A model generated the notes under the pieces. It worked only from the letters and a program-made list of their open reading frames with translations. It did not search any database and was not told the origin of the DNA. The translations under genes and the position numbers were made by a program. 34,673 nt of DNA from the IMG/VR virus record IMGVR_UViG_2563366915_000001. One strand, 5' to 3'. Every line of letters starts with the position of its first letter. Position 1 is the stretch's first letter. Positions 1 to 33,440 of this stretch are shown here, one piece after another. This DNA comes from a virus. Taxonomy: Duplodnaviria; Heunggongvirae; Uroviricota; Caudoviricetes.

Positions 1-1164
1 TTACGCCTTCTTTATATCCTCCATAATTCCAGAGTGGGACATATTTGGGACATTATCACCAAAAATGTCGTCTATTTTCCTCGCATGCTCTGTCAAATGA
101 TTAGGCGCAAGGTGAGCATACCTACGAACCATTTCTATGGACTCCCATCCGCCCATTTCCTGAAGCACTGATAATGGGACGCCTGACTGAATCAGCCAGC
201 TTGCCCAGGTGTGTCTGAGGTCATGGAAACGGAAATCTTCAATTCCTGCACGACGACAAGCTGATAGCCATGATGTCTTGCTGTCGATGCGCATCTTCCT
301 GACCGCAGGCGTTGATGTTCCATCTGCTCGCTTAGCCGCCTTGGTATGTACAAACACCCATTTGTGATGCTTGCCTATTTGATCACGCAACACTTTACAG
401 GCGGTATCGTTCAGCGCCACACCAATGGCGCGGTTTGATTTGCTCTCTTCTGGATTCACCCAGGCAACTCGTCGCTGCATGTCGATTTGTTGCCATTCCA
501 GATTTATGATGTTCGACTTTCTCAGACCAGTTGCCAGCGCAAACTTGACGACAGATTTCAGTGGTTCGGGGCACTCATCAATAAGGCGTTTTGCTTCCTC
601 CTTTTCCAGCCATCTGACTCGCTTGTTTCTGACCGCTGGTATCTTGATGACAGGCGCTTTTTCCAGCCACTTCCAGTCGCGTTCTGCAGCACGGAGAATG
701 GCCTTTATCATGGCAAGATGCTTTGCCTTTGTCTGAGTTGATACTGGCTTTGGTTCATAAACAGGCAGTTCTTTACCTTTCCTGATGGCGGCCTGAACTT
801 TCTGTTTCCATATTTCTTTCGTCTTTCTGTTATGCATTCTGCTTACAGCAGAGTAAATCTTTGCCTCCGAGATATCTTTAAGCCTTATACCCTCAAAATG
901 TTCAAGCCAGAACTCAATCCGGCTTTTATCTGAATCGAGAGATTTTTTATCAGCTTTTTCCTCAAGCCATCTTAGGCAGGCCTCTTCAAAAGTGACATCA
1001 GGTAAATCCCCTAGCTTTTCTACTCGCCAGAGTTCTGCTTTTCGCTTGTCGTGCAACTCCTGAGCTTGCCGCTTGTCCTTTGTGCCAAGAGATTCCTTAA
1101 TTCGTTTCCCGCCCGGGAGCGAATACGAGGCATACCATATTTCATTTCTGCGGAAGAGTGACAT
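1..1164 (-). CDS. int: Tyrosine site-specific integrase, 387 aa, full length; stop codon is at window positions 1-3
   Basis: ORF-track translation has the C-terminal tyrosine-recombinase signature (HDLRHTWAS...RYAH) and matches my recollection of DLP12 IntD (argU-targeting); it is not lambda Int. It is the first gene of a leftward operon followed by xis. Confidence 0.9.
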
Positions 1165-1688: not shown

Positions 1689-1907
1689 TCATAGTCCCCA
1701 TTGTTTGTTCTTAAGTTCGATCTCCTCCTGGCAACTTGCACAAGTCCGACAACCCTGAACAGCCAGGCGTCTTCGCTCATCTATCGGATCGCCACACTCA
1801 CAACAATGAGTTGCGGATACAGTCTGGTAGTTCAGACGACGCATTTTTATTGCTGTATTGCGCTGTAATTCTTCGATTTCTGATGCTGAATCAATGATGT
1901 CTGCCAT
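1689..1907 (-). CDS. TraR/DksA-family C4 zinc-finger protein (72 aa)
   Basis: Two CxxC pairs (CCECGDPIDE...CRTCASC) in a ~70-aa protein, the pattern of TraR-like RNA-polymerase-binding proteins encoded by lambdoid phages (lambda Orf73-like). Confidence 0.7.
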   Translation of the reverse strand: MADIIDSASEIEELQRNTAIKMRRLNYQTVSATHCCECGDPIDERRRLAVQGCRTCASCQEEIELKNKQWGL

Positions 1908-4108: not shown

Positions 4109-4405
4109 TTATACCTCTGAATCAATATCAACCTGGTGGTGAGCAATGGTTTCAACCATGTACCGGATGTGTTCTGCCATGCGCTCCTGAAACTCAACAT
4201 CGTCATCAAACGCACGGGTAATGGCTTTTTTGCTGGCCCCGTGGCGTTGCAAATGATCGATGCATAGCGATTCAAACAGGTGCTGGGGCAGGCCTTTTTC
4301 CATGTCGTCTGCCAGTTCTGCCTCTTTCTCTTCACGGGCGATCTGCTGGTAGTGACGCGCCCAGCTCTGAGCCTCAAGACGATCCTGAATGTAATAAGCG
4401 TTCAT
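4109..4405 (-). CDS. gam: Gam, host RecBCD inhibitor; only the short (GamS-length, 98 aa) form is encoded
   Basis: Translation [60 protein letters not shown]... matches lambda Gam from its internal Met. The in-frame upstream sequence has no start codon and reaches a stop at 4490-4492. Confidence 0.9.
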
Positions 4406-4480
4406 GGCTGAACTCCTGAAAATGGCTGTGAAAAAATCGCCCGCGGAATGCCAGGCTGATTCGGAAAACAGGAAAGGGGA

Positions 4481-4771
4481 TTAGTGATTCAGACCGTTGC
4501 CGCGTCCGTCGAGAAAAACTTCCACGAGCAAGTCACGGGTATAAGTGCGCTCAATGCCGCGATGCAGATAAAGTCGTCCGCGTAAATTAGCTGATGCAGT
4601 CCAGGTACCATCTTTGCGTTTGACCAGCATTCCTGGCATGACCGCACCGCGATTAACGGTCTGCGTTCCGTAATGTTGATGAACCATAAAAACTCCTGCC
4701 CGTAAGCTGGGCTGCTGAACATATAAAGACTTCTGCGCGTATTCAGGCGGTGGATGGCCGCCGGTTGTCAT
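4481..4771 (-). CDS. First ORF of the PL operon; kil-like by position, possibly N-terminally extended (96 aa)
   Basis: Ends where lambda kil ends relative to gam; no arginine-rich motif, so not N-like; no cIII-like sequence. Identity to lambda Kil is not verified. Confidence 0.4.
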   Translation of the reverse strand: MTTGGHPPPEYAQKSLYVQQPSLRAGVFMVHQHYGTQTVNRGAVMPGMLVKRKDGTWTASANLRGRLYLHRGIERTYTRDLLVEVFLDGRGNGLNH

Positions 4772-4964
4772 AACTAAGCCGCCTCGTTGAAGCGACTAAG
4801 GTATGAAATGTTGAGTTGATTTCAGCTGGTCACACCGACGTTCACGCGTCCGTTTCATCCCTCGCACTCCCCGAAGCCTGCTGAAATTCAAGCTGCGGAT
4901 CTAAGCGGTCATCGCAACGGTGAATCAGGTAGTTGCCGTATCGTTGTGTTGTTGCGATGAACTT

Positions 4965-5040
4965 ATTTAAAACTATAGTTGTTTTATCGTCAACAACAAA
5001 AGTTGTTTTATTGGTTGTTTTAGATATAACTGGTTGTATT
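4965..5040 (-). promoter_or_regulatory. Candidate PL promoter with OL-type operator repeats
   Basis: On the minus strand: TTGACG (plus 4988-4993), 17-nt spacer, TTAAAT (plus 4965-4970). Architecture ttgttgacNNaaaacaacNatagtttTAA parallels the PR candidate. GGTTGTT/AACAACC-type half sites recur (ttggttgtttt, actggttgtat, caacaacaaaag). Confidence 0.45.
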
Positions 5041-5130
5041 TAGGATGGATTTATTTTGTGACTTGAATCGCATAGCGATAACTGAAGCGAGGTTATGGTG
5101 GTTTTTTTAACGGTGTGTGTGATGAGGGGA

Positions 5131-5161
5131 GGGCAAAAGAAAACCCGGCACGGTGGCCGGG
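5131..5161 (-). terminator. Rho-independent terminator closing the cI-proximal two-gene cassette
   Basis: Stem cccggc/gccggg (5144-5149 / 5156-5161) with 6-nt loop; on the minus strand it is followed by ttttcttttgccc; sits 9 bp past the stop of the 310-aa ORF. Confidence 0.6.
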
Positions 5162-5169
5162 TAGCATCA

Positions 5170-6102
5170 CTATTCGATTTTTTTAACCATGTAGTTACGT
5201 CGTGATGTTCCTAATCTTTCATTGTGAATCTCAGAAACGCTTACTACGAGCGATATTCGTTCACCAACTTTATATTTACTTTGAATTTCTCCTAACATAT
5301 CAATCGGATAAGAAGCCTTTATTTTTCCAAGCTCGCTTGCAATCTCCAATTTCCCGTACATGGATAAAATAGCAAGTTCGCCTGATATATGCTCATCCGG
5401 TAGCTGAATGACCTTCGTTAAAGCTAAGCGAGCATTCAGTTTTTTTATATCTTCTGAAGAAATTGACACTTGTCTGGTACCATCACTTAAAGGTCCAATC
5501 CAAGTAAGATCAAAGTTAAGACTATATTTTTCGCACTCATTTATGATGTTTTTTAGGTTAGCTGTTGATTGCGAACCAATTTCGGCAATTTTAGCCGTGA
5601 ATGTTTCTTCATCAATGGATGAGAGTAGTGCAAAAATCTCCTTAACAGCATGACTGGATACTGTTTCGATGAGCTCGCAAGAACCAGTAGAAAAAGTAAC
5701 ACCTAACTTCGTCGAACCTGGACGCAAGTCTGCCAATCTCATGTCTAATGATTTTTTAACATCAATCGGCACACGACTAGAATCTTTCCCAGATCCAAGT
5801 CGGTAAACTGCTTTCTGTACAAGGGATGCGAGATTACCTGAAATTACAGATAGAATATCTAACGGAATAGACCCGAAATCGACCAAAACACCTTTTAATC
5901 TCAACTCCATGAAATCACGTAAAGGATGTTGGTTATCGATTGCACGTTGTCTCTCTCGGAGATCGCTCAGATGGGAGTCAAGTGATCTAAATATAATGTC
6001 ATCAGCAAATGATCTCCCCTTATTTTGAGCAAGCAGATCCACATCGCGTTGAATGAACGCAATTCGCTCCTTGAGGGAGTTGAATGTTTTTTCTTCGCTC
6101 AT
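5170..6102 (-). CDS. Uncharacterised 310-aa protein, second gene of the cassette in the rexAB slot
   Basis: Long ORF in AT-rich DNA; its ATG overlaps the stop of the upstream ORF (ATGA at 6099-6102); no motif I can recognise (no Walker A, no clear HEPN Rx4-6H, no TM segment). Confidence 0.7.
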   Translation of the reverse strand: MSEEKTFNSLKERIAFIQRDVDLLAQNKGRSFADDIIFRSLDSHLSDLRERQRAIDNQHPLRDFMELRLKGVLVDFGSIPLDILSVISGNLASLVQKAVYRLGSGKDSSRVPIDVKKSLDMRLADLRPGSTKLGVTFSTGSCELIETVSSHAVKEIFALLSSIDEETFTAKIAEIGSQSTANLKNIINECEKYSLNFDLTWIGPLSDGTRQVSISSEDIKKLNARLALTKVIQLPDEHISGELAILSMYGKLEIASELGKIKASYPIDMLGEIQSKYKVGERISLVVSVSEIHNERLGTSRRNYMVKKIE

Positions 6103-6572
6103 AACATTACCCTCACGAGGCCTTTAGGATTCTCCTTCCGATCAAAACCAAACCACCCTCTCCAGTAACTTCGCCTTTCACTATAATCGATTTCTGGATG
6201 ATTTTCAGGCAGCAAAAGAACGTCAATGCTGTAGTTTTCTTTAATAAAATCTCTATTTAACAATGAGCTGACCAATGGCATCAGCGTGTTTGGCAAAGAG
6301 TTTAGGGCCAAATAATCGACGACCACGAGTATATCTATGTCATCAGGTTCAGGTTTCTCTGTAGTGAATGAACCATCGATCCACACTTCAGAGAAACATA
6401 GACACTGCTGATTAACAAGTTTAAATTGCTCAATAAGCTGTATAAAATTACAGTATAGCATACTTCTTCTAACGGATTTTGGGAAGGTGTCGACACAAAG
6501 AGACTTGATGCCATCACTATCCATATCATGAAATCCTGCTGTAAGAAGAGGTGGGAAGCTAGGCTTTTCCAT
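6099..6572 (-). CDS. Putative minimal nucleotidyltransferase (pol-beta superfamily, MNT/SMODS-like), 157 aa
   Basis: Translation contains WIDGSFTTEKPEPDDIDILVVVD, i.e. hG[GS]-x9-DxD, the signature of pol-beta-fold NTases, with a further acidic stretch (DVLLLPEN) downstream; first gene after cI on the same strand. Confidence 0.65.
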   Translation of the reverse strand: MEKPSFPPLLTAGFHDMDSDGIKSLCVDTFPKSVRRSMLYCNFIQLIEQFKLVNQQCLCFSEVWIDGSFTTEKPEPDDIDILVVVDYLALNSLPNTLMPLVSSLLNRDFIKENYSIDVLLLPENHPEIDYSERRSYWRGWFGFDRKENPKGLVRVML

Positions 6573-6653
6573 CCTAAGTCCTTGTTTATGCCATATAGTG
6601 TTCTATTTAATATTCTTGAAAAGAGTGTGCCTTAAAAAGCTACAGGCTAATTA

Positions 6654-7343
6654 TTAACCATGCTTCCTGTACGTCTGCGGCATGCTCCCAATAACCTTAC
6701 CGAAGATGAACACCCGGTTCATCTCGTCTTTCTCGATCGGGTCCCACGGTGAGTAGCTTTTGTTATCAGAGATGACCAGCAGCTTATCCTTCATCATTTG
6801 CAGGCGCTTTACATGGGCTGTGTCGTCGTACAGAAACGCATAGATACCATCACCGTCGAAAGATTTAACTGTGATATCAACGAACAGCAGATCACCTGGT
6901 TCGATCGTTCCTGACATGCTGTCACCACGCACGTTAATGATGCGGATATTTTCCGCCTTCCTACCATCGAACATGTGACGAGCATCGTCAAACGAGTACT
7001 CAACCGAGCGTAGAACTTCTACAAACTCACGGTTGATGACTCCCGGCCCAGCACTGACTTCTATATCAAGAACGTCAATCTTGAAGTATTTGGAATGGCT
7101 GACAGTTGATTGTATTGGTTGCACTGTACTGTCTGACATATTTCCAACGCCAGAAGATAACCATTCTGCGCGCACACCCAAAGCGTTCGCGATCTCCACG
7201 ATTTTAGTTGTTTGATTAGCTTTCCCTGTTTCGATTTTCTGAATAGCAGCCTGGCTAACCCCGACCAAATCCCCAAGCGCCTTTTGTGTAAGGCCTCGCG
7301 CTAATCTGGCTTCTTTAAGTCTTTCTGAGAGTGTTGTTTTCAT
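6654..7343 (-). CDS. cI: CI-type prophage repressor, N-terminal HTH plus C-terminal S24/LexA-like peptidase; start taken at MKTTLSERL
   Basis: HTH region LTQKALGDLVGVSQAAIQKIETG; C-terminal autocleavage-domain pattern (RGDSMSGTIEPGDLLFVD...VKR); divergent from cro across an operator region. Confidence 0.9.
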   Translation of the reverse strand: MKTTLSERLKEARLARGLTQKALGDLVGVSQAAIQKIETGKANQTTKIVEIANALGVRAEWLSSGVGNMSDSTVQPIQSTVSHSKYFKIDVLDIEVSAGPGVINREFVEVLRSVEYSFDDARHMFDGRKAENIRIINVRGDSMSGTIEPGDLLFVDITVKSFDGDGIYAFLYDDTAHVKRLQMMKDKLLVISDNKSYSPWDPIEKDEMNRVFIFGKVIGSMPQTYRKHG

Positions 7344-7447
7344 AGTCCAAATGTACAACCAAGGTTTTATTCCATCAAACGAAAATGGTTGTTGACTAAA
7401 AACAACCATAGTTTTAATCTTGATTCAAATTAACCACGGAGGTTGTT
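7344..7447. promoter_or_regulatory. OR/PR/PRM region between cI and cro
   Basis: PR candidate TTGACT (7392-7397), 17-nt spacer, TAATCT (7415-7420); inverted repeat atggttgtt-N7-aacaaccat embraces the -35; same half sites as the PL region. Confidence 0.55.
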
Positions 7448-7678
7448 ATGAACCCAGCTATCAAAACAGCGATCAATATCGTTGGTTCACAAAAGAAACT
7501 GGGCGCTGCTTGCGAAGTTTCACAGCAGGCCGTCTATAAGTGGCTTCACAACAAAGCAAAGGTATCCCCTGAACATGTCGGCAGCATTGTTACGGCTACT
7601 GGTGGAGTAGTGAAGGCATACCAGATTCGCCCGGATCTTCCGAAGTTGTTTCCACACACCGAAAAGAACGCAGCTTAA
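7448..7678 (+). CDS. cro: Cro-like HTH regulator (76 aa)
   Basis: Small HTH protein (QKKLGAACEVSQQAVYKWL) transcribed divergently from cI immediately after PR. Confidence 0.75.
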   Translation: MNPAIKTAINIVGSQKKLGAACEVSQQAVYKWLHNKAKVSPEHVGSIVTATGGVVKAYQIRPDLPKLFPHTEKNAA

Positions 7679-7747
7679 ATTTCCATTTCACGCTCTTTAA
7701 CAATAAGCAATCAACTTAACAGTCAATTCAAACTAAAGGAGTCAATT

Positions 7748-8287
7748 ATGCAACCACTTCCATACCAACAGACTAGCGGATTTAGCCCGACTGCGGTGAT
7801 AAATCGTTCTCAAACAAAACAGGTGCCAGGCCACGAAAAAATCCGTGATGCCGTCCGCGCCTGGTCGGCTGTAGATAATCAGGATGTCGTTGCCACACTC
7901 ATTGTGAATGAGTATCGGGAGCAGGGCGGCGGCACCATCGATTTCCCTGATGATGTCAGCCGTGCACGCCAGAAGCTGTTCCGCTTCCTCGATAACAAAT
8001 TCGATTCTGAAAAATACCGAAATAACGTGCGTGAACTGACCCCGGCAATTCTGGCGGTACTACCGCTGGAATATCGCGGTTACCTGGTTGAGCAGGATAG
8101 CTTCATGGCTAGGTTGGCTGAAATGGAAAAGGAACTCAGTGAGGCAAAACAGGCTGTCATTCTCAACGCACCACGCCACCAGAAACTGAAGGAAATTAGT
8201 GAAGGTATTGTATCGATGTTTCGTGTGGACCCAGATCTGGCTGGTCCATTGATGGCGATGGTTACTACCATGCTGGGGGCGATATGA
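7748..8287 (+). CDS. YdaT-like protein occupying the cII position (179 aa)
   Basis: Motifs NEYREQGGG and LTPAILAVLPLEYR resemble what I recall of Rac YdaT; no lambda-cII-like sequence. Confidence 0.5.
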   Translation: MQPLPYQQTSGFSPTAVINRSQTKQVPGHEKIRDAVRAWSAVDNQDVVATLIVNEYREQGGGTIDFPDDVSRARQKLFRFLDNKFDSEKYRNNVRELTPAILAVLPLEYRGYLVEQDSFMARLAEMEKELSEAKQAVILNAPRHQKLKEISEGIVSMFRVDPDLAGPLMAMVTTMLGAI

Positions 8288-8373
8288 CAGGTTCAGAAAT
8301 GGCGAAAGCCGGTCTGCTGGAACAGAACCGACTTTCAGGTGCAAATCGTAACACACTCATTGCGGGAGGAATT

Positions 8374-9303
8374 ATGGCAAACACTGCTGAGATATTCAAT
8401 TTTCCAGTGCCGGATGCGGCACAAAAGGAGCCGCGCGTGGCAGATCTCGATGATGGTTATACGCGCATTGCAAATGAGTTGCTGGAAGCTGTGATGCTGG
8501 CCGGATTAACACAGCACCAGCTTCTGGTCTTCCTGGCTGTCATGCGCAAAACATATGGCTTTAATAAAAAACTGGATTGGGTGAGCAACGAGCAACTTTC
8601 CGAATTGACCGGGATATTGCCGCACAAGTGTTCTGCTGCAAAAAGCGTTCTGGTAAAGCGTGGGATTCTTATTCAGAGCGGGCGGAATATCGGCATTAAT
8701 AATGTGGTCAGTGAATGGTCAACATTACCCGAATCAGGTAAGAAAAATAAAGTTTACCTGAAAGAGGTAAATTTACCTGAATCAGGTAAGAAAAGTTTAC
8801 CCAAATCAGGTAAAGGCGTTTACCCGAATCAGGTAAACACAAAAGACAAACTAACAAAAGACAATATAAAACCTTTTTCGTCCGAGAATTCTGGCGAATC
8901 CTCTGACCAGCCAGAAAACGATCTTCCTGTGGTGAAACCGGATGCTGCAATTCAGAGCGGCAGCAAGTGGGGGACAGCAGAAGACCTGACCGCCGCAGAG
9001 TGGATGTTTGACATGGTGAAGACTATCGCACCATCAGCCAGAAAACCGAATTTTGCTGGGTGGGCTAACGATATCCGCCTGATGCGTGAACGTGACGGAC
9101 GTAACCACCGCGACATGTGCGTGCTGTTCCGCTGGGCCTGCCAGGACAACTTCTGGTCCGGTAACGTGCTGAGTCCGGCCAAACTCCGCGACAAGTGGAC
9201 CCAGCTCGAAATCAACCGGAACAAGCAACAGGCTGGCGTGACAGTCGGCAAACCAAAACTCGACCTGACAAACACTGACTGGATTTACGGGGTGGATCTA
9301 TGA
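8374..9303 (+). CDS. O: Replication initiator O; start taken at MANTAEIFNF with GGGAGGA RBS
   Basis: N-terminal O-type domain (ADLDDGY...LLVFLAVMRKTYGFNKK), lambda-like C-terminus ending ...DWIYGVDL, iteron array inside the gene; 4-bp overlap with P. Confidence 0.9.
   Translation: MANTAEIFNFPVPDAAQKEPRVADLDDGYTRIANELLEAVMLAGLTQHQLLVFLAVMRKTYGFNKKLDWVSNEQLSELTGILPHKCSAAKSVLVKRGILIQSGRNIGINNVVSEWSTLPESGKKNKVYLKEVNLPESGKKSLPKSGKGVYPNQVNTKDKLTKDNIKPFSSENSGESSDQPENDLPVVKPDAAIQSGSKWGTAEDLTAAEWMFDMVKTIAPSARKPNFAGWANDIRLMRERDGRNHRDMCVLFRWACQDNFWSGNVLSPAKLRDKWTQLEINRNKQQAGVTVGKPKLDLTNTDWIYGVDL
8725..8880. repeat. Replication origin: five 17-19-bp iterons (consensus tttacccgaatcaggtaa) followed by an A-rich segment, inside O
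   Basis: Direct repeats at 8725-8741, 8753-8770, 8772-8789, 8796-8813 and 8819-8836, then acacaaaagacaaactaacaaaagacaatataaaacc; same layout as lambda ori. Confidence 0.8.
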
Positions 9304-10548: not shown

Positions 10549-12051
10549 TTAAATTGCATCTGCAAACTCTGGGGTTTTTCGCTCAGGTATAATTGATGAG
10601 TTGCTGTTGTCACTTTTTTTATTTTCATGATTACGAATAGCCAATGACTCATTAAAGTCTTTTGCGACTGCTGTCTCAATAAATTCAATTTCTGAATCAG
10701 AGTGTTTTTTAACAGCTTCTTTGATCTCATCCAGAGTAACATAGAAAAACTCTTTTCTACGATTTACAAGATTGACTCTCTTTTTATCGAAGACATCATG
10801 TAGTTTTTTTTCTAATGATGGAGCGTCCTCCGAATAAATCATGGCATGTACATCAAAAATAAAAGGAACAGATGCATCACCGAGCTCATTTACACGGTCT
10901 TGCGGATCAAGACGTCGTGTCATGCCTATTTTATAAACATTCTCCCCAAAAGAACCTATGTTCGAAATAATATAAACATGACCTTGTTTGGTTTGTTGTG
11001 CCATGGATAATGCTCTTTGATGCTTTGATTCAGCCTGCGACAAACTCTGTTCTAGTTCGGCAATGCGATTTTCGAGGCGCTGCTTCATGTCACCAGTAAC
11101 TTTTTCCATTTCCTTTCTTGCAGCTTCAATTGCTTTTTTATAACGGCGCTCTTCTGCCTCTGCGTCTTGCATGGCCTTTTCTATTTCTCGTTGTGCACGC
11201 TCCTCCTCTCTCATTTGTGCCCTTATTTCTGCCTGTTCTTCTTTTTCTTTCTGTTTTTGCTCACGATATTCATGGGTAAGCCACAATTCCTCAAGTTTTT
11301 TATTGAGGTATTTAGTGTTTATATATATGTGATTTTGCTCGTTTAGTTTATTTATGGCCTCAAATGCCTTTGTGATGCGTTCTTCCATTTTAGTGATGTT
11401 TTTCCACGTGCAATTGCTAATTGCAGCATCACATTCATTATTAAATGCTCTAGTAGTTAGCCTGATATTTCTGTCTGTCATTTTTTTACCCTCTGCTCGA
11501 GAGCCTTCAACAGTCCATTGGGTTGTACAATATACTGCGCCAGAGTGGGTTTTATCCCGCAGCATTAATTTCTGTTCATCCCTGATGGATTTTATTTTGT
11601 TTTTAAATTGCTCTGAATCTTCAAAATTAAAATGAGGTTCGTAAAATCCTAGTTCGGCTAGCTCAACATCTTCTGAATAAATAGAAATTTGCCTTACTAG
11701 TTTATCATATATTTCTTTCTTCTCTTTATAAGTTCTTCTTAGCTCTTGGATTTGTTTATTGATACCATCCATTTTTTCAATGGTGTTTGTTAGTTCATTA
11801 TTGGCATTTTCTTTTACTTTTAGGGATTCTTCTTTTATTATGGAGCATTCTTGCTCTGTTTTCTCAATAAGCTTCTTACATTCTTCTTCTACATTAAAAT
11901 AATCTGCAAAGCGAGATTTGTATTCTTCATTTTTTTGATTGCTATCACTTAATTCTAATTGTATTTTTTTGATGCGTTTGATTGCAGCTATATAAAGAAC
12001 AAGAACAACCAATAAAAATATGATTGCAAGTAATAGAGGAGTTTGAGTCAT
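10549..12051 (-). CDS. Membrane-anchored coiled-coil protein with DUF4041-like region and C-terminal T5orf172 (GIY-YIG-like) domain, 500 aa
   Basis: N-terminal hydrophobic helix (LLLAIIFLLVVLVLYIAAI); long E/K/R/Q-rich heptad region; C-terminal GHVYIISNIGSFGENVYKIGMTRRLDPQDRVNELGDASVPFIFDVHAMIYSEDAPSLEKKLHDVFDKKRVNL...KEFFYVTLDEIKEAV fits T5orf172; antisense to the early-right operon; AT-rich. Confidence 0.8.
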   Translation of the reverse strand: MTQTPLLLAIIFLLVVLVLYIAAIKRIKKIQLELSDSNQKNEEYKSRFADYFNVEEECKKLIEKTEQECSIIKEESLKVKENANNELTNTIEKMDGINKQIQELRRTYKEKKEIYDKLVRQISIYSEDVELAELGFYEPHFNFEDSEQFKNKIKSIRDEQKLMLRDKTHSGAVYCTTQWTVEGSRAEGKKMTDRNIRLTTRAFNNECDAAISNCTWKNITKMEERITKAFEAINKLNEQNHIYINTKYLNKKLEELWLTHEYREQKQKEKEEQAEIRAQMREEERAQREIEKAMQDAEAEERRYKKAIEAARKEMEKVTGDMKQRLENRIAELEQSLSQAESKHQRALSMAQQTKQGHVYIISNIGSFGENVYKIGMTRRLDPQDRVNELGDASVPFIFDVHAMIYSEDAPSLEKKLHDVFDKKRVNLVNRRKEFFYVTLDEIKEAVKKHSDSEIEFIETAVAKDFNESLAIRNHENKKSDNSNSSIIPERKTPEFADAI

Positions 12052-12450: not shown

Positions 12451-12863
12451 GGTGTTTTACTTCGACAGCCAGAATTGGGAGTCTCTATTCGTCTGGCGGC
12501 TAAAGGTGATATGGAAATCGTTATGTTTTGGCCTGAGGTAGTTGTAACTGTTGTAGCAGCTATGGATGTGATCATCATGGTGTCCATTTACTGGGGTTGA
12601 CGACATGATTTATCCGGCGCTATATTCTGTGCGTTGCCGCAAAATCGGCACACGGGATTGGCGTCCCGGGATACTACTCAACGCATACCGCGTTAAGCGG
12701 TTTTTTTGTGCGCTAAGCACGGCTATGCCCAAATTATGGTGGGCTGTGTGAGGGCTTCTTCGGAAGCGCCGGGTTTGAGTAGCCGGTTACGCCAACCTTA
12801 CACAGTTCACCACCAGTCGATTGGCGTCGTTGGTGGTGATGGTTAACCTGATGAGGTGATACT

Positions 12864-13472
12864 ATGACTACTCAATTAGCATTCCACAAAACGACGTTTA
12901 CCCCGATTTGCCACAATAACAGAATTTGGCTTACTGCCACTGAAGTTGGTTTAGCACTGGAATATGCGGACGATAAAGCAGTTCAGCGCATTTACTCTCG
13001 GCACTCAGATGAATTCACAGATATGATGACAAGGGTGGTCAAAGTGACCACCCCTCGTGGAATGCAGGAGTCTCGAGTATTTAGCCTTCGCGGAGCCCAT
13101 TTGATCGCCATGTTTGCTCGTACTCCTGTGGCCAAAGAATTCCGCCGCTGGGTTCTGGATATTCTCGATCGAGAAGTTCAACAATCCCCAATCACAAAAC
13201 AATTCACTGATAACGAACTTTGCACACTCGCCTGGTTATGGCGAGCAAGTGATACGATGTTAACCGCCTGCCAGAACGTTACGCCCCTTCTTCAGGTCGC
13301 AGAGCATCGCGAAGCAGGTAGATTCACTTCAATCGAACAAGAATATCCTCGGATACTCAACAGGGCGCGAGAAATCCTTGCCAGAGAAACGGCGCATGTA
13401 AAATTCCAACCGTGGCAGGATGATAAGTGGAGTCGTGTGTTACCATATTTCCGTCAGAATCTGTTGCAATAA
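12864..13472 (+). CDS. Bro-N domain antirepressor-like protein (202 aa)
   Basis: N-terminal region RIWLTATEVGLALEYADDKAVQRIYSRHSDEF...RGMQESRVFSLRGAHLIAMFARTPVAKEFRRWVLDIL fits the Bro-N/AntA pattern. Confidence 0.7.
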   Translation: MTTQLAFHKTTFTPICHNNRIWLTATEVGLALEYADDKAVQRIYSRHSDEFTDMMTRVVKVTTPRGMQESRVFSLRGAHLIAMFARTPVAKEFRRWVLDILDREVQQSPITKQFTDNELCTLAWLWRASDTMLTACQNVTPLLQVAEHREAGRFTSIEQEYPRILNRAREILARETAHVKFQPWQDDKWSRVLPYFRQNLLQ

Positions 13473-13492
13473 AGTCACTAGTTAGAAATACT

Positions 13493-13532
13493 GCCAGCAT
13501 TCTGCGATGACGGAAGTGCTGGCATTTTTTTT
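13493..13532 (+). terminator. Rho-independent terminator after the Bro-N gene
   Basis: Stem gccagca (13493-13499) / tgctggc (13517-13523), followed by an 8-T tract (13525-13532). Confidence 0.7.
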
Positions 13533-13707
13533 GGTAATGTGCGAGTCCATTTCATAAAATACGGGTACTGGAACTGGACGATATAATCTAAAAGATACCA
13601 TTATCAGTAGCATTAAAATCGCTATGTGCCGATACGGATATAAATTATATTGATTGTTCACATACCTTATTGGATATTACTGAGGGGTGTTTATATAAGG
13701 TGTAACG

Positions 13708-14217: not shown

Positions 14218-14294
14218 TTTTCAGCACATTTGATTTCCAATAATCAACCAGCCATAATCATGCCATTGGAGCTTGAACAACTCCGGTGACTTCT

Positions 14295-14384
14295 GCGCTA
14301 AACGGGGACGTTTATGCGCACATACAATCCAAACTCTCTTCTCCCTTCACAGATGCAGAGATGCACCTGCGATTTTTTGCATCC
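14295..14384 (+). repeat. Direct repeat copy 2, immediately upstream of ninB
   Basis: See copy 1; about 92 percent identical over 90 bp. Confidence 0.75.
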
Positions 14385-14415
14385 AGCGTTTGACCTCTGC
14401 GGAGGTGAAGCGTGA
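14314..14415 (+). CDS. Small ORF (33 aa) inside repeat copy 2, YlcH-like by position; overlaps the ninB start
   Basis: ATG preceded by GGGGA; encodes [33 protein letters not shown]; DLP12 has a 33-aa ylcH in this position (recollection). Differences from copy 1 are mostly non-synonymous, so coding status is doubtful. Confidence 0.3.
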
Positions 14416-15901: not shown

Positions 15902-16285
15902 ATGCGTGATATTCAGATGGTTCTTGAGCGTTGGGGAGCGTGGGCGGCTAATAATCATGAAGATGTGACCTGGTCGTCCATTGCCGCCGGTTTTAAGGGA
16001 TTAATTCCTTCAAAAGTAAAATCTCGCCCGCAATGTTGTGACGATGACGCGATGATCATTTGCGGGTGCATGGCCCGTCTGAAAAAGAACAACAGCGATT
16101 TGCACGATTTATTAGTAGATTATTATGTAGTCGGTATGACATTCATGTCACTGGCAGGTAAGCATTGCTGCTCTGATGGTTATATCGGGAAAAGGTTACA
16201 AAAGGCTGAGGGCATAATTGAAGGGATGTTAATGGCATTAGATATCCGGTTAGAGATGGATATCGTTGTTAATAACTCTAATTAA
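15902..16285 (+). CDS. Q: Late antiterminator Q of the phage-82/DLP12 QuuD type (127 aa from MRDIQ)
   Basis: Translation [78 protein letters not shown]... matches my recollection of QuuD; sits between the nin genes and the lysis region. Confidence 0.85.
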
Positions 16286-16424: not shown

Positions 16425-16464
16425 ATATGTTGGGGAGGCAACGCCTCCCGCAACATATCTTTTT
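16425..16464 (+). terminator. Strong rho-independent terminator about 180 bp downstream of Q; candidate tR' ending a short pR' leader (6S-like) RNA
   Basis: 15-bp stem (atatgttggggaggc / gcctcccgcaacatat, one bulge) with 3-nt loop, followed directly by ctttttcg; spacing from the Q stop is close to the ~194-nt lambda 6S RNA (recollection). Confidence 0.6.
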
Positions 16465-16474
16465 CGTAATCAGA

Positions 16475-17557
16475 TTAGAACTGGTAAACCAGACCTACAG
16501 CAACGATGTCATCAGTATCAATACCAGCTGTTTTGGTAAACTTACTATCGTCAATTAAGTTGATTTTGTAATCAACAAAAGTGGACATGTTTTTATTAAA
16601 GTAGTAAGTAGCACCGACATCGACATACTTGACTAAGTCTCGGTCACCATGAACACCAAGGTCTTTACCTTTTGACTGAAGGTAAGCAACAGATGGGCGC
16701 AGACCGAAGTCAAACTGATATTGTGCTACTGCTTCAAAGTTTTGTGCTTTGTTTGCAATATGGTTATTACCAAAAACGGTCATATTCTGAGTTTCAGAAT
16801 ATGTGGTAGCCAGATAGATATTGTTCGCATCATATTTCAGGCCTGCAGCCCATACTTCCGCATTTTTGCCGGAGGCATTGAATTTGCTCTTACCATAGGC
16901 GACCTGACCGTCAGTGCGATCTGATTTAGCATAGGTTGCACCCACGCCGAATCCTTCATACTCATAAGTAGTGGAGAAACCGAAACCATCACCATTGGCT
17001 TCAGTTACGTCAGTGCGGTCATTTTTACCCTGATACTGAGCAGCAAAGTTCAGGCCATCGACCAGACCAAAGAAGTCGTTGTTACGATAAGTTGCAACAC
17101 CAGTAGTGCGACCAGTCATGAACACATCTGTTTGGGTCCAGGTATCACCACCGAATTCTGGCAGGACGTCAGTCCACGCACCGATGTCGTATGCTACACC
17201 GTAGTTACGGCCGTAATCGATTGAGCCGTAATCACCAAATTTCAGGCCTGCAAATGCAAGACGGGTTTTGTCTTTGGAAGAACCTTGAGATTCAGCGCGG
17301 TTGCCTTTGAATTCATATTCCCACTGACCGAAACCAGTCAGTTGATCGTTGATTTGGGTTTCACCTTTGAAGCCAAGACGGGCATAAGTAGTATCACCAT
17401 CATCTGCATCATTAGAGGAGAAGTAGTGCTTAGCATTAACTTTCCCGTACAGATCCAGCTTGTTACTGTCTTTATTATAAATTTCAGCTGCCTGAGCAGA
17501 CATCGCCATCAGTACTGATGCAGCTACAGCAGAAATTGCCACTGTTAATTTTTTCAT
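16475..17557 (-). CDS. nmpC: Outer-membrane general porin of the OmpC/OmpF family, NmpC/Lc type, intact 360 aa with signal peptide
   Basis: Signal peptide [23 protein letters not shown], porin body and C-terminal ...AVGLVYQF beta-barrel signature; location between Q and the lysis genes as in DLP12/PA-2. Confidence 0.9.
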
Positions 17558-30892: not shown

Positions 30893-33440
30893 ACCGGTAG
30901 GCGATCTGGTCGTTGATTTAAGTCTGGATGCGGCCAGATTTGACGAGCAGATGGCCAGAGTCAGGCGTCATTTTTCCGGTACGGAAAGTGATGCGAAAAA
31001 AACAGCGGCAGTCGTTGAACAGTCGATGAACCGGCAGGCGCTGGCTGCACAGAAAGCGGGAATTTCCGTCGGGCAGTATAAAGCCGCCATGCGTATGCTG
31101 CCTGCGCAGTTCACTGACGTGGCCACGCAGCTTGCAGGCGGGCAAAGTCCGTGGCTGATCCTGCTGCAACAGGGGGGGCAGGTGAAGGACTCCTTCGGCG
31201 GGATGATCCCCATGTTCCGGGGGCTTGCCGGTGCGATCACCCTGCCGATGGTGGGGGCCACCTCGCTGGCGGTGGCGACCGGAGCGCTGGCGTATGCCTG
31301 GTATCAGGGCAACTCAACCCTGTCCGATTTCAACAAAACGCTGGTCCTTTCCGGCAATCAGGCGGGACTGACGGCAGATCGTATGCTGGTCCTGTCCAGA
31401 GCCGGGCAGGCGGCAGGGCTGACGTTTAACCAGACCAGCGAGTCACTCAGCGCACTGGTTAAGGCGGGGGTAAGCGGTGAGGCTCAGATTGCGTCCATCA
31501 GCCAGAGTGTGGCGCGTTTCTCCTCTGCATCCGGCGTGGAGGTGGACAAGGTCGCTGAAGCCTTCGGGAAGCTGACCACAGACCCGACGTCGGGGCTGAC
31601 GGCGATGGCACGCCAGTTCCATAACGTGACGGCGGAGCAGATTGCGTATGTTGCTCAGTTGCAGCGTTCCGGCGATGAAGCCGGGGCATTGCAGGCGGCG
31701 AACGAGGCCGCAACGAAAGGGTTTGATGACCAGACCCGACGCCTGAAAGAGAACATGGGCACGCTGGAAACCTGGGCAGACAGGACAGCACGGGCATTCA
31801 AATCCATGTGGGATGCGGTGCTGGATATTGGTCGTCCTGATACCGCTCAGGAGATGCTGATTAAGGCAGAGGCTGCGTTTAAGAAAGCAGACGACATCTG
31901 GAATCTGCGCAAGGATGATTATTTTGTTAACGATGAAGCGCGGGCGCGTTACTGGGATGATCGTGAAAAGGCCCGTCTTGCGCTTGAAGCCGCCCGAAAG
32001 AAGGCTGAGCAGCAGAGTCAACAGGACAAAAATGCGCAGCAGCAGAGCGATACCGAAGCGTCACGGCTGAAATATACCGAAGAGGCGCAGAAGGCTTACG
32101 AACGGCTGCAGACGCCGCTGGAGAAATATACCGCCCGTCAGGAAGAACTGAACAAGGCACTGAAGGACGGGAAAATTCTGCAGGCAGATTACAACACGCT
32201 GATGGCGGCGGCGAAAAAGGACTATGAAGCGACGCTGAAAAAGCCGAAAGGCGTGAAGGTGTCTGCGGGCGATCGTCAGGAAGACAGTGCTCATGCTGCC
32301 CTGCTGACGCTTCAGGCAGAACTCCGGACGCTGGAGAAGCATGCCGGAGCGAATGAGAAAATCAGCCAGCAGCGCCGGGATTTGTGGAAGGCAGAAAGTC
32401 AGTTCGCGGTACTGGAGGAGGCGGCACAACGTCGCCAGCTGTCCGCACAGGAGAAATCCCTGCTGGCGCATAAAGACGAGACGCTGGAGTACAAACGCCA
32501 GCTGGCTGTACTTGGCGACAAGGTCACCTATCAGGAGCACCTGAACGCGCTGGCGCAGCAGGCGGATAAGTTCGCACAGCAACAACGGGCAAAACGGGCC
32601 GCCATTGATGCAAAAAAACGGGGGCTGACTGACCGGCAGGCAGCGCGGGAAGCCACGGAACAGCGCCTGAAGGAACAGTATGGCGATAATCCGCTGGCGC
32701 TGAATAACGTCATGTCAGAGCAGAAAAAGACCTGGGCGGCTGAAGACCAGCTTCGCGGGAGCTGGATGGCAGGCCTGAAGTCCGGCTGGAGTGAGTGGGA
32801 AGAGAGCGCCACGGACAGTATGTCGCAGGTTAAAAGTGCTGCCACGCAGACCTTTGATGGTATTGCACAGAATATGGCGGCGATGCTGACCGGCAGTGAG
32901 CAGAACTGGCGCAGCTTCACCCGTTCCGTGCTGTCCATGATGACAGAAATTCTGCTTAAGCAGGCAATGGTGGGGATTGTCGGGAGTATCGGCAGCGCCA
33001 TTGGCGGGGCTGTTGGTGGCGGCGCGTCCGCGTCAGGCGGTACAGCCATTCAGGCCGCTGCGGCGAAATTCCATTTTGCAACCGGAGGATTTACGGGAAC
33101 CGGCGGCAAATATGAGCCAGCGGGGATTGTTCACCGCGGTGAATTTGTCTTCACGAAGGAGGCAACCAGCCGGATTGGCGTGGGGAATCTCTACCGGCTG
33201 ATGCGCGGCTATGCCACCGGTGGTTATGTCGGTACACCGGGCAGCATGGCGGACAGCCGGTCGCAGGCGTCCGGGAAGTTTGAGCAGAATAACCATGTGG
33301 TGATTAACAACGACGGCACGAACGGTCAGATAGGGCCACAGGCGCTGAAGGCGGTTTATGACGTAGCCCGTAAGGCGGCAATGGATGTTGTGACCGGGCA
33401 GATGCGTGATGGTGGTCTGTTCTCCGGAGGTGGACGATGA
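30885..33440 (+). CDS. H: Tail tape-measure protein H (851 aa)
   Basis: Long alpha-helical Q/A/K/E-rich protein with glycine-rich C-terminal region; matches lambda gpH in position and sequence character. Confidence 0.95.
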   Translation: MAEPVGDLVVDLSLDAARFDEQMARVRRHFSGTESDAKKTAAVVEQSMNRQALAAQKAGISVGQYKAAMRMLPAQFTDVATQLAGGQSPWLILLQQGGQVKDSFGGMIPMFRGLAGAITLPMVGATSLAVATGALAYAWYQGNSTLSDFNKTLVLSGNQAGLTADRMLVLSRAGQAAGLTFNQTSESLSALVKAGVSGEAQIASISQSVARFSSASGVEVDKVAEAFGKLTTDPTSGLTAMARQFHNVTAEQIAYVAQLQRSGDEAGALQAANEAATKGFDDQTRRLKENMGTLETWADRTARAFKSMWDAVLDIGRPDTAQEMLIKAEAAFKKADDIWNLRKDDYFVNDEARARYWDDREKARLALEAARKKAEQQSQQDKNAQQQSDTEASRLKYTEEAQKAYERLQTPLEKYTARQEELNKALKDGKILQADYNTLMAAAKKDYEATLKKPKGVKVSAGDRQEDSAHAALLTLQAELRTLEKHAGANEKISQQRRDLWKAESQFAVLEEAAQRRQLSAQEKSLLAHKDETLEYKRQLAVLGDKVTYQEHLNALAQQADKFAQQQRAKRAAIDAKKRGLTDRQAAREATEQRLKEQYGDNPLALNNVMSEQKKTWAAEDQLRGSWMAGLKSGWSEWEESATDSMSQVKSAATQTFDGIAQNMAAMLTGSEQNWRSFTRSVLSMMTEILLKQAMVGIVGSIGSAIGGAVGGGASASGGTAIQAAAAKFHFATGGFTGTGGKYEPAGIVHRGEFVFTKEATSRIGVGNLYRLMRGYATGGYVGTPGSMADSRSQASGKFEQNNHVVINNDGTNGQIGPQALKAVYDVARKAAMDVVTGQMRDGGLFSGGGR

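Follow-up and report, generated by a model that had tools for sequence, protein, structure and literature searches.

Lambdoid phages pass their early terminators by one of two textbook routes, N protein with the nut sites of phage lambda or the put RNAs of phage HK022. How are delayed-early genes expressed in a lambdoid prophage in which neither can be recognized? This question is raised by the early region of IMG/VR record IMGVR_UViG_2563366915_000001, a viral DNA of 34,673 nucleotides (nt), which is referred to below as the window. Here, the leftward early promoter (PL) is followed by an untranslated leader and then by kil, the gene for a cell-division inhibitor, in the place where an N gene would be expected. 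N-less lambdoids as such are already known (HK022, HK639), yet the DLP12-type family, to which this prophage belongs, fits neither known mechanism. LLS is a further lambdoid suspected to lack N (PMC12315714).

A preliminary description of the sequence had proposed that delayed-early expression is independent of N. Comparison with N-less relatives supports this proposal indirectly: about 16 isolated phages, among them the inducible phage bv_4C10, share this arrangement of PL, leader and kil without N. As for the means, a leader RNA of the HK022 put kind finds no support, and transcriptional insulation by cargo genes is not needed. The sequence points to a promoter-proximal boxA in the rightward operon, a hairpin in front of kil and terminators that belong to inserted cassettes.

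An early region without N or put

The position given for PL in the preliminary description is borne out. A consensus promoter scanner overlooked this promoter because its -10 hexamer lacks A at position 2, but three observations support the call. PL and its operators are nearly a duplicate of the promoter/operator of the rightward early promoter, PR (GTTGTTGAC-TAAAAACAACCATAGTTTTAA at 7389-7418 compared with GTTGTTGACGATAAAACAACTATAGTTTTAA at 4997-4967), in an alignment the -10 occupies exactly the columns of the TATTAT -10 that other immunity types have, and similarity between immunity types starts at the predicted transcription start (+1), approximately 4958. The PL 31-mer is unique in the window (chance expectation 0.00). 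Positions in the leader RNA are given below as p = 4959 minus the window coordinate. The leader of about 185 nt described earlier measures 187 nt up to the ATG at 4771, which opens an open reading frame (ORF) of 96 amino acids (aa), and 271 nt up to the ATG at 4687, which has an AGGAG ribosome-binding site and starts the 68-aa Kil; homologues of Kil in Klebsiella, Enterobacter and Salmonella are also 68 aa long. PGAP annotates nothing in 4688-5169. An Rfam scan of the whole window at gathering thresholds returned only IsrK and C4 RNA, and E-value scans of 4400-5200 and 7380-8400 returned nothing credible.

A nearly identical PL (TTGACT-17-TTAAAT) and a similar cro occur in the Klebsiella phage ST101-KPC2phi6.1 (3414-3563), where a leader of approximately 70 nt precedes small membrane-protein genes and N is also absent; lambdoid left arms that lack N therefore also occur outside the DLP12 family.

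The absence of N rests on several searches. The ORF list and a six-frame scan for arginine-rich products yielded no N-sized ORF between gam and cI, and the three frames of 4380-5180 that were run gave no match to an N-family PHROG. On these grounds the prophage has no recognizable N gene, as had been claimed. The accompanying statement that the gam-cI interval is free of ORFs with an arginine-rich N-terminus is literally untrue, since the leader contains a 20-codon mini-ORF (31 codons if counted from TTG 4891) at 4858-4796 with the product MKRTRERRCDQLKSTQHFIP, the sole arginine-rich candidate for a lambda-type N.

This mini-ORF could be the remnant of a deleted N gene or even a minimal N-like factor, which in relatives that read through into kil would amount to a product of 125 aa. 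Its beginning, MKRTRERRCD, resembles the arginine-rich motif of lambda N (RRRERRAE), and it lies at the place expected for an N start, with an (A/G)UG codon, GUG in most relatives, 8 nt downstream of GGAG. The commonest polymorphisms (RNA 67, 85, 106 and 151) are all synonymous in its frame, and the three codon positions have diversities of 0.023, 0.017 and 0.070. However, the peptide is short and its length is not conserved: the stop is replaced by CAG in 59 of 87 distinct relatives, so that the frame continues into kil, a TCAAC insertion shifts the frame in 4 of 61 sequences, and one of the 61 has lost the start codon. Rare changes in the motif are radical for a protein (R to W, R to C) and harmless to the CG-rich hairpin (RNA 107-123, 4836-4852) that lies within the mini-ORF, whose arginine codons (RNA start AUG AAA CGG ACG CGU GAA CGU CGG) are the two arms of the palindrome CGGACG...CGUCGG that forms this hairpin. 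No phage N shares the N-terminus, tblastn with the arginine-rich peptide found no relatives outside the prophage family, and the 125-aa read-through ORF, used as a protein query, retrieved nothing N-like. The long form is almost never called by gene callers, Kil elsewhere has its 68 aa, and both operons lack the boxB that would be the partner of N. A minimal N-like factor or the remnant of a deleted N is therefore very unlikely here; the mini-ORF is probably a by-product of the hairpin, and possibly a relic. One truncated match to the leader (H132), considered as the trace of a full-length N ancestor, was rejected, since the match proved to be an IS3 insertion.

The second textbook route was addressed with a covariance model. 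In HK022, one put copy lies just downstream of PL and a second approximately 270 nt downstream of PR; put RNA acts via the beta' zinc-binding domain of RNA polymerase, lets the enzyme read through terminators without protein factors and is blocked by the rpoC substitution Y75N. HK022 and HK639 resemble the window in that they are lambdoids without an N antiterminator and have a structured RNA directly after PL, in the slot of lambda nutL, and HK639, according to its GenBank annotation, likewise has an element in the left arm only. HK022 holds Nun in the position of N, whereas the window encodes nothing N-sized there.

Put sequences were collected from IMG/VR with a degenerate pattern that found more than 120 loci, many of them putL/putR pairs about 1.2 kb apart. 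The model was built from 22 distinct put sequences with stem I (10-14/30-34) and the stem II pairs taken from the cryo-EM description (PMC9378689), and it recovered its controls with high scores: 98 bits for HK022 putL, 87 bits for HK639 putL and 68 bits for HK022 putR. The best score in the window was 10.4 bits (E 2.2) at 32240, a chance match, and with filters off over 4300-8500, the sense strand of the leader stayed at or below 3 bits. By this measure the two-stem put fold with its conserved core (CGAACGGC...GGCG...GGAUGA...CAAU) is missing, and no leader-like copy lies downstream of PR, neither in the window nor in other immunity types. By these comparisons the prophage contains no put RNA of the HK022 type, and its leader matches those of HK022 and HK639 neither in sequence nor in structure. 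Two apparent leads were discarded: in a BLAST comparison of 4400-8400 with the early region of HK022, the match was limited to the C-terminal part of cI, and a resemblance seen by eye between AAACGGACGCG...CGUCGG and the put sequence GAACGGCGCG...GCGUCGG earned no covariance-model score.

As a side result, the collection shows that put RNAs of the HK022 putL/putR and HK639 types are widespread in IMG/VR (loci L127-L246). Three put-bearing contigs (L136, L204, L227) also have a perfect boxA followed by a hairpin, resembling a classical nut site; put and nut-like elements can thus coexist in one phage. In L136 and L204 the boxA-hairpin lies on the strand opposite put, 2.7-3.3 kb away, consistent with a location in the other early operon.

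The prophage is an intact lambdoid of the DLP12 family (Bievrevirus-like), integrated at argU of Escherichia coli. The leader segment 4800-4960 (161 nt) and the spacer between cro and cII both match the chromosome of E. coli strain 118UI at 100% identity. PGAP annotates the 118UI locus as tRNA-Arg, intD, ybcN, ninE, ybcO, rusA, ylcG, quuD, ompC, essD and rrrD, i.e., intD beside tRNA-Arg/argU together with the ybcN-ninE-ybcO-rusA-ylcG-quuD-porin-essD-rrrD genes by which we define the family. This match and gene set place the window, as an intact member, in the same family as DLP12 of E. coli K-12, a truncated form that shares the argU site and the same genes. K-12 DLP12 has presumably lost its whole early region, including the PR region, and the window, along with phages such as 4C10, provides a picture of what was lost.

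The family is abundant. The leader segment was found in 2210 of 5426 complete E. coli genomes, in none of which a feature is annotated on it, and in about 16 isolated phages (Lambda_4C10, 4A7, Perceval, 1W, 3W, D2, several PhiR phages, IdasGreatGrand and Turner). A scan of GTDB species representatives gave only chance matches in G+C-rich genomes, and two IMG/VR anchors gave one identical, shallow set of E. coli sequences. Phages with the N-less layout are viable: bv_4C10 (LR595861, genus Bievrevirus) is spontaneously released at approximately 5E6 plaque-forming units (PFU)/mL, is inducible by DNA-damaging bacteriocins and, titrated on E. coli C, forms plaques (bioRxiv 10.64898/2026.05.26.727859).

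These phages bear directly on the idea that the prophage is defective or insulated by its cargo, and that N was lost without functional meaning. Cargo is indeed present in both arms (the PDC-M63 pair, PD-Lambda-1 and the IsrK/C4/ant module), partly with its own promoter or terminator. Yet isolated phages such as PhiR34_1, IdasGreatGrand and PhiR5_1 match its intact early region at 97-100% identity, and the sister phage bv_4C10 has the same layout and can be induced. We consider this explanation highly improbable, and insulation by cargo, as once suggested, is not needed.

Table 1. Features of the early region and of the route to Q in the window (strand as + or -).
Feature	Position	Strand	Remarks
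int	1-1164	-	left arm; followed by exo and bet
gam	4109-4405		left arm
kil	4481-4687	-	68-aa cell-division inhibitor; PF27398, PHROG 294, PGAP; first gene of the PL operon
Untranslated PL leader	4688-4958	-	RNA +1 at approximately 4958
Conserved hairpin (3' hairpin)	4768-4806	-	RNA 153-191; outer stem UCAUA/UAUGA; consensus fold
Arginine-rich mini-ORF	4796-4858	-	RNA 101-163; (A/G)UG-KRTRERRCDQLKSTQHFIP-stop; GGAG 8 nt upstream
Hairpin P1	4863-4907	-	RNA 52-96; inner stem 65-70/79-84; fold
5' terminal stem P0	4911-4958	-	RNA 1-8 with 41-48, enclosing a variable A/C-rich loop
PL promoter	4965-4993	-	predicted sigma-70 type; -35 TTGACG 4993-4988, 17-nt spacer, -10 TTAAAT 4970-4965
Operator half-sites AACAAC/GTTGTT	overlap PL, reach approximately 5040		
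Intrinsic terminator	5143-5162	-	closes the cI-cargo (PRM-type) operon, just upstream of PL
Two cargo genes	5170-6572	-	after a 400-nt gap beyond kil
cI-type repressor	6654-7409	-	
PR promoter/operator	7392-7420	+	TTGACT, 17-nt spacer, TAATCT; near-duplicate of PL
cro	7448-7678		right arm; then YdaT-type cII equivalent, O, P, ren, cargo
rrn-type boxA	7691-7703	+	CGCTCTTTAACAA; 13 nt after the cro stop, approximately 270 nt from the PR start; nutR position
P1 immI-like self-contained insert	12597-13540	+	promoter-like site 12597-12626, IsrK, C4 RNA, ant, terminator
IsrK small RNA	12635-12707	+	RF01394, 58.7 bits; own terminator
IsrK terminator	12687-12707	+	first intrinsic terminator between P and Q; Rfam RF01394 (58.7 bits) and terminator scan
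C4-type antisense RNA	12732-12817	+	RF01695, 74.8 bits
ant (antirepressor)	12864-13472	+	
Intrinsic terminator after ant (moron terminator)	13492-13540	+	-18.6 kcal/mol, z -2.56, then U8
Promoter-like TTGATT-17-CATAAT	14230-14258	+	candidate; upstream of ylcH-ybcN...quuD
quuD (Q-type late antiterminator)	15902-16285	+	PHROG 79, E 5.7e-54; PGAP; right arm order ninB/ybcN, ninE, rusA, Q, porin (-), lysis genes
tR'-like terminator	16425-16464	+	downstream of Q; -21.3 kcal/mol, z -5.1, then CUUUUUC (U5)

The conserved leader and the hairpin before kil

The PL leader is kept across immunity types. Its transcribed part is retained in at least four of them, with the exchange junction at about +1, and the P0 stem is kept in five PL/immunity types despite differing loops or 8-nt insertions. 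Further downstream, hairpin P1 has a bulge with three alleles at position 85, and its 3' half has an alternative partner in RNA 130-140; pair counts for P1 show variation compatible with the stem, though one-sided only. RNA 98-103 pairs with 149-154 and encloses the CG-rich hairpin (107-112/119-123). The leader also contains two tandem UCAAC units (4809-4818, minus strand), three in 4 of the 61 distinct relatives, and this length polymorphism falls inside the conserved core. In one genome (E. coli Res13-Lact-PEA14-20, 1252-2465) an IS3-family element splits the leader at approximately RNA 108.

Given this conservation, leader RNA 46-160 might represent a new class of cis-acting processive antiterminator, analogous to putL and unrelated to it in sequence, which would modify RNA polymerase on its departure from PL. 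The leader stands exactly where putL or nutL would lie, in a family devoid of both N and put, HK639 with its left-arm put offers a precedent for a left-only element, and terminator-like sites lie further down the left operon. The multi-helix fold tolerates all observed variation, with 99.6% of cells paired across 61 distinct sequences, from which the structure itself was derived. Pair 101-151 is A-U in 5, G-U in 17 and G-C in 39 of these sequences, and never A-C. However, this is the only pair that changes on both sides, in a very shallow alignment, and shuffled sequences fold as stably as the leader (z -0.03 and -0.30). The core has a nucleotide diversity of 0.033, compared with 0.057 and 0.040 at third codon positions of kil and gam, and such a modest reduction indicates mild constraint. 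The element is moreover confined to E. coli, which lowers the power of any comparative or covariation analysis, and the PR operon, where the strong terminators lie, has no second copy. An antiterminating leader is therefore rather unlikely; the 5' stem-loops probably serve RNA stability or folding.

The 3' third of the leader is shared with other phages. From 4746 to 4808 the window is 95% identical to phage HK225 and 85% to phi80, and this stretch comprises a conserved hairpin whose outer stem sequesters the AUG (4771-4769) of MTTGGHPP..., a short ORF just upstream of kil. The first 22 nt or so of the PL transcript are also related by sequence comparison. In contrast to the window, HK225 and phi80 have a boxA-like element, PL-proximal genes (including the annotated 'N' of phi80) and an intrinsic terminator between PL and the hairpin (GACCCGCCACGGCGGGUUUUUU in HK225, AGCCGCCUAACCAGCGGCUUUUU in phi80), which closes these PL-proximal genes. 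The terminator is followed by CAUACC, the hairpin and a short ORF MT(T/I)GGHPP... of 18 codons in phi80 and 21 in HK225; next comes kil in HK225, with its own ribosome-binding site. The window matches both phages only from UUUCAUACC on, inside the former U-tract. The terminator hairpin and everything else up to PL are replaced by a non-coding core of approximately 150 nt, and the short ORF and kil form an in-frame fusion. Changes on both strands preserve the pairing of the hairpin between the window and phi80, as read by eye, since an automatic alignment of the three sequences misplaces a 2-nt gap.

Two readings follow from this architecture. As the PL-proximal segment was replaced together with its terminator, leftward expression would be independent of N by design of the operon. 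The hairpin hides a translation start immediately before a toxic gene, and we read it as a translational throttle that probably limits translation of kil.

boxA, terminators and the route to Q

A single element of the nut type is present in the right arm. The sequence GCTCTTTAACA at 7692-7702 is the sole and perfect match in the window to the gamma-proteobacterial boxA consensus GYTCTTTAANA (PMC5725501), where 0.13 matches are expected. It lies in the promoter-proximal transcribed region just after cro, at the nutR position. The preliminary description, which regarded nut boxA or boxB elements as evidence against N-independence, had missed this boxA; on the other hand, no boxB was found. The RNA of the cro-cII spacer is unstructured (-3.7 kcal/mol, z +1.13), and hence no boxB hairpin accompanies the boxA. 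The PL leader has no boxA either, allowing up to one mismatch to YGCTCTTTA or two to GCTCTTTAACAA. The spacer with its boxA occurs in 1515 of the 5426 E. coli genomes and is tied to the immunity type of the window, which is the commonest and has a bare boxA at the nutR position.

The window thus agrees with lambda in gene order (int-exo-bet-gam-kil-PL-cargo-cI-cro-cII-O-P-ren-nin-Q), in the boxA immediately after cro and in terminators in the nin region. Unlike lambda, it has no N protein, no boxB beside boxA and no boxA in the PL leader, and its boxA is closer to the rrn form GCUCUUUAACAA than to the lambda form, CGCUCUUA. Closer parallels are the boxA-only systems of rrn leaders, suhB and CRISPR arrays, in which, as here, a perfect boxA lies in an unstructured promoter-proximal spacer and no phage protein partner is evident. 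The window differs from them in that its boxA, known from sequence, belongs to a phage PR operon and is absent from sister immunity types. In rrn operons and CRISPR arrays, boxA alone is known to counter Rho in long transcripts without N (PMC7665894). In the window, the boxA after cro points to host Nus factors that may act without N.

Two motifs on the plus strand, CGCAGCTTAAATTTC (7669-7683) and AATCAACTTAACA (7709-7721), flank the boxA in the PR transcript. Both recur in the same order in the PL leader, with one mismatch each (RNA 62-76, 4883-4897, and RNA 138-150, 4809-4821). Their joint occurrence at nutR is unlikely to be due to chance and is restricted to the immunity type of the window; the first partly overlaps the end of cro, and both are treated here as unexplained. 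In HK639 (37313-37330) and in phages of the 4C10 type (9280-9300 in 4C10) the cro stop codon is located in the loop of a GCCGC...GCGGC hairpin with a 5-bp stem and a 6-7-nt loop, whereas the type found in the window has no such hairpin and has the boxA instead.

Of the terminators that had been invoked as obstacles between PR and Q, the one after ant is a genuine prediction, with a G+C-rich hairpin and a U-tract, and it is preceded by the IsrK terminator; both are strong moron terminators by sequence. The second terminator named earlier, at 16425-16464, is equally well formed, but lies downstream of Q in a tR'-like position and bears on Q rather than on N. It adjoins the 3' end of an OmpC/NmpC-type porin gene (16475-17557, minus strand). 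DLP12 and phage PA-2 likewise have a porin gene between Q and the lysis genes. In 4C10, plus-strand terminators are also predicted between P and Q, an 11-bp stem after emrE and a 9-bp stem (6 G-C pairs) followed by CUUUUU.

In the window the two terminators are part of an insert resembling P1 immI, which combines a promoter-like site, IsrK, C4 RNA and ant. In Salmonella Gifsy-1, IsrK reportedly controls an antirepressor and a Q-like antiterminator. Beyond the insert, upstream of ylcH-ybcN, the candidate promoter TTGATT-17-CATAAT marks the exact point from which the window and 4C10 are homologous, and a weak hairpin with a T-run (14354-14371) is located approximately 100 nt past this site. The block 14230-14412 could constitute a separate, possibly attenuated promoter for the ybcN-quuD operon. 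K-12 DLP12 provides an argument that Q can be expressed without PR, given that it presumably lacks the PR region. Its lysis operon is nevertheless reported to be controlled by its Q-type antiterminator, as stated in a citation of the original work (Rueggeberg et al. 2013, cited in PMC7918800).

An alternative is that an unrecognized phage protein from the early operons antiterminates in trans. Candidates would be several small early proteins without known function (DUF4222, DUF1382, DUF1317, PHROG 303 and PHROG 285), and the family needs a way past the moron terminators, even in the 4C10 type without boxA. Yet, apart from quuD, no candidate resembles N, Q-like or other antiterminator families, and no RNA or DNA recognition site is shared by both operons across immunity types. 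Two further early proteins also count against this alternative: the YdaT-type protein, which we take to be the CII equivalent, and the TraR/DksA protein, which presumably acts at initiation. A trans-acting protein of this kind is unlikely. The TraR/DksA-family zinc-finger protein (72 aa; 1689-1907, minus strand) is encoded in the distal PL operon, and a terminator-like site (1985-1967) precedes its gene.

Other cargo genes of the prophage have matches among defence systems. The two genes between PL and cI, in the position of rexA/rexB, match the PADLOC candidate PDC-M63 (B, E 4e-42; A, E 7e-43; the small gene is DUF6932 by PGAP) and are co-transcribed with cI in an operon that ends at the terminator 5162-5143. 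A DUF4041 protein of 500 aa (10549-12051, minus strand), encoded between ren and the ant module and oriented against PR transcription, corresponds to the anti-phage defence gene PD-Lambda-1 (E 1.9e-198).

Early expression without N: a tentative account

Taken together, the account that we tentatively prefer combines an N-independent left arm, regulation of kil by a hairpin, protection of the PR transcript from Rho by boxA and Nus factors, and production of Q by leakage or from an internal promoter; as a whole it is quite possible, but by no means assured. Transcription from PL would reach kil, gam, bet and exo without meeting a promoter-proximal terminator, while the 3' hairpin and the short ORF would throttle translation of the toxic kil. 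On the right, boxA would most likely load NusB/NusE and other Nus factors on RNA polymerase, in the way of rrn operons and CRISPR arrays, and so protect the PR transcript from Rho. The strong intrinsic terminators would belong to inserted, self-contained cassettes (IsrK/C4/ant here, emrE and others in 4C10), and Q could be made by residual read-through, from the promoter-like element upstream of ylcH-ybcN-quuD, or both.

Several observations weigh against this account. In the right arm, rrn-type boxA complexes, as far as is known, counter mainly Rho and are weak against strong intrinsic terminators, and passage of 12687-12707 and 13492-13540 is therefore not explained by boxA. Nor is boxA found throughout the family: the 4C10 type and three other PL types have none between cro and cII or up to Q, and the sole match in L089 is located far from cro. 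Since the 4C10 type is viable without boxA and has strong terminators between P and Q, boxA is not a family-wide answer. The candidate promoter upstream of ybcN matches the consensus at only 9 of 12 positions, and a Q promoter that is always active would put a lysogen at risk. In the left arm, terminator-like sites do occur downstream, a weak one at 4456-4439 and one of -10.2 kcal/mol followed by U6 at 1985-1967. Finally, the core of the leader has been retained by different immunity types and agrees with a defined fold, neither of which a merely passive leader would require.

An abundant family, which includes several isolated, inducible gut phages, thus keeps strong predicted intrinsic terminators between PR and Q and has neither N nor put. 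There is an appreciable, if minor, chance that its early program, present in approximately 40% of complete E. coli genomes, runs on a new antiterminator RNA in the PL leader (46-160) or, in its commonest immunity type, on an rrn-like Nus complex assembled on boxA alone. If so, lambdoid phages would have a third means of early antitermination, whichever of the two applies; if only leaky read-through and internal promoters are at work, the findings amount to ordinary comparative genomics. The question becomes testable in tractable phages such as bv_4C10 or the PhiR phages: whether processive antitermination is dispensable to these lambdoids, whether a bare boxA and host Nus factors take its place, or whether an unrecognized RNA carries it out.

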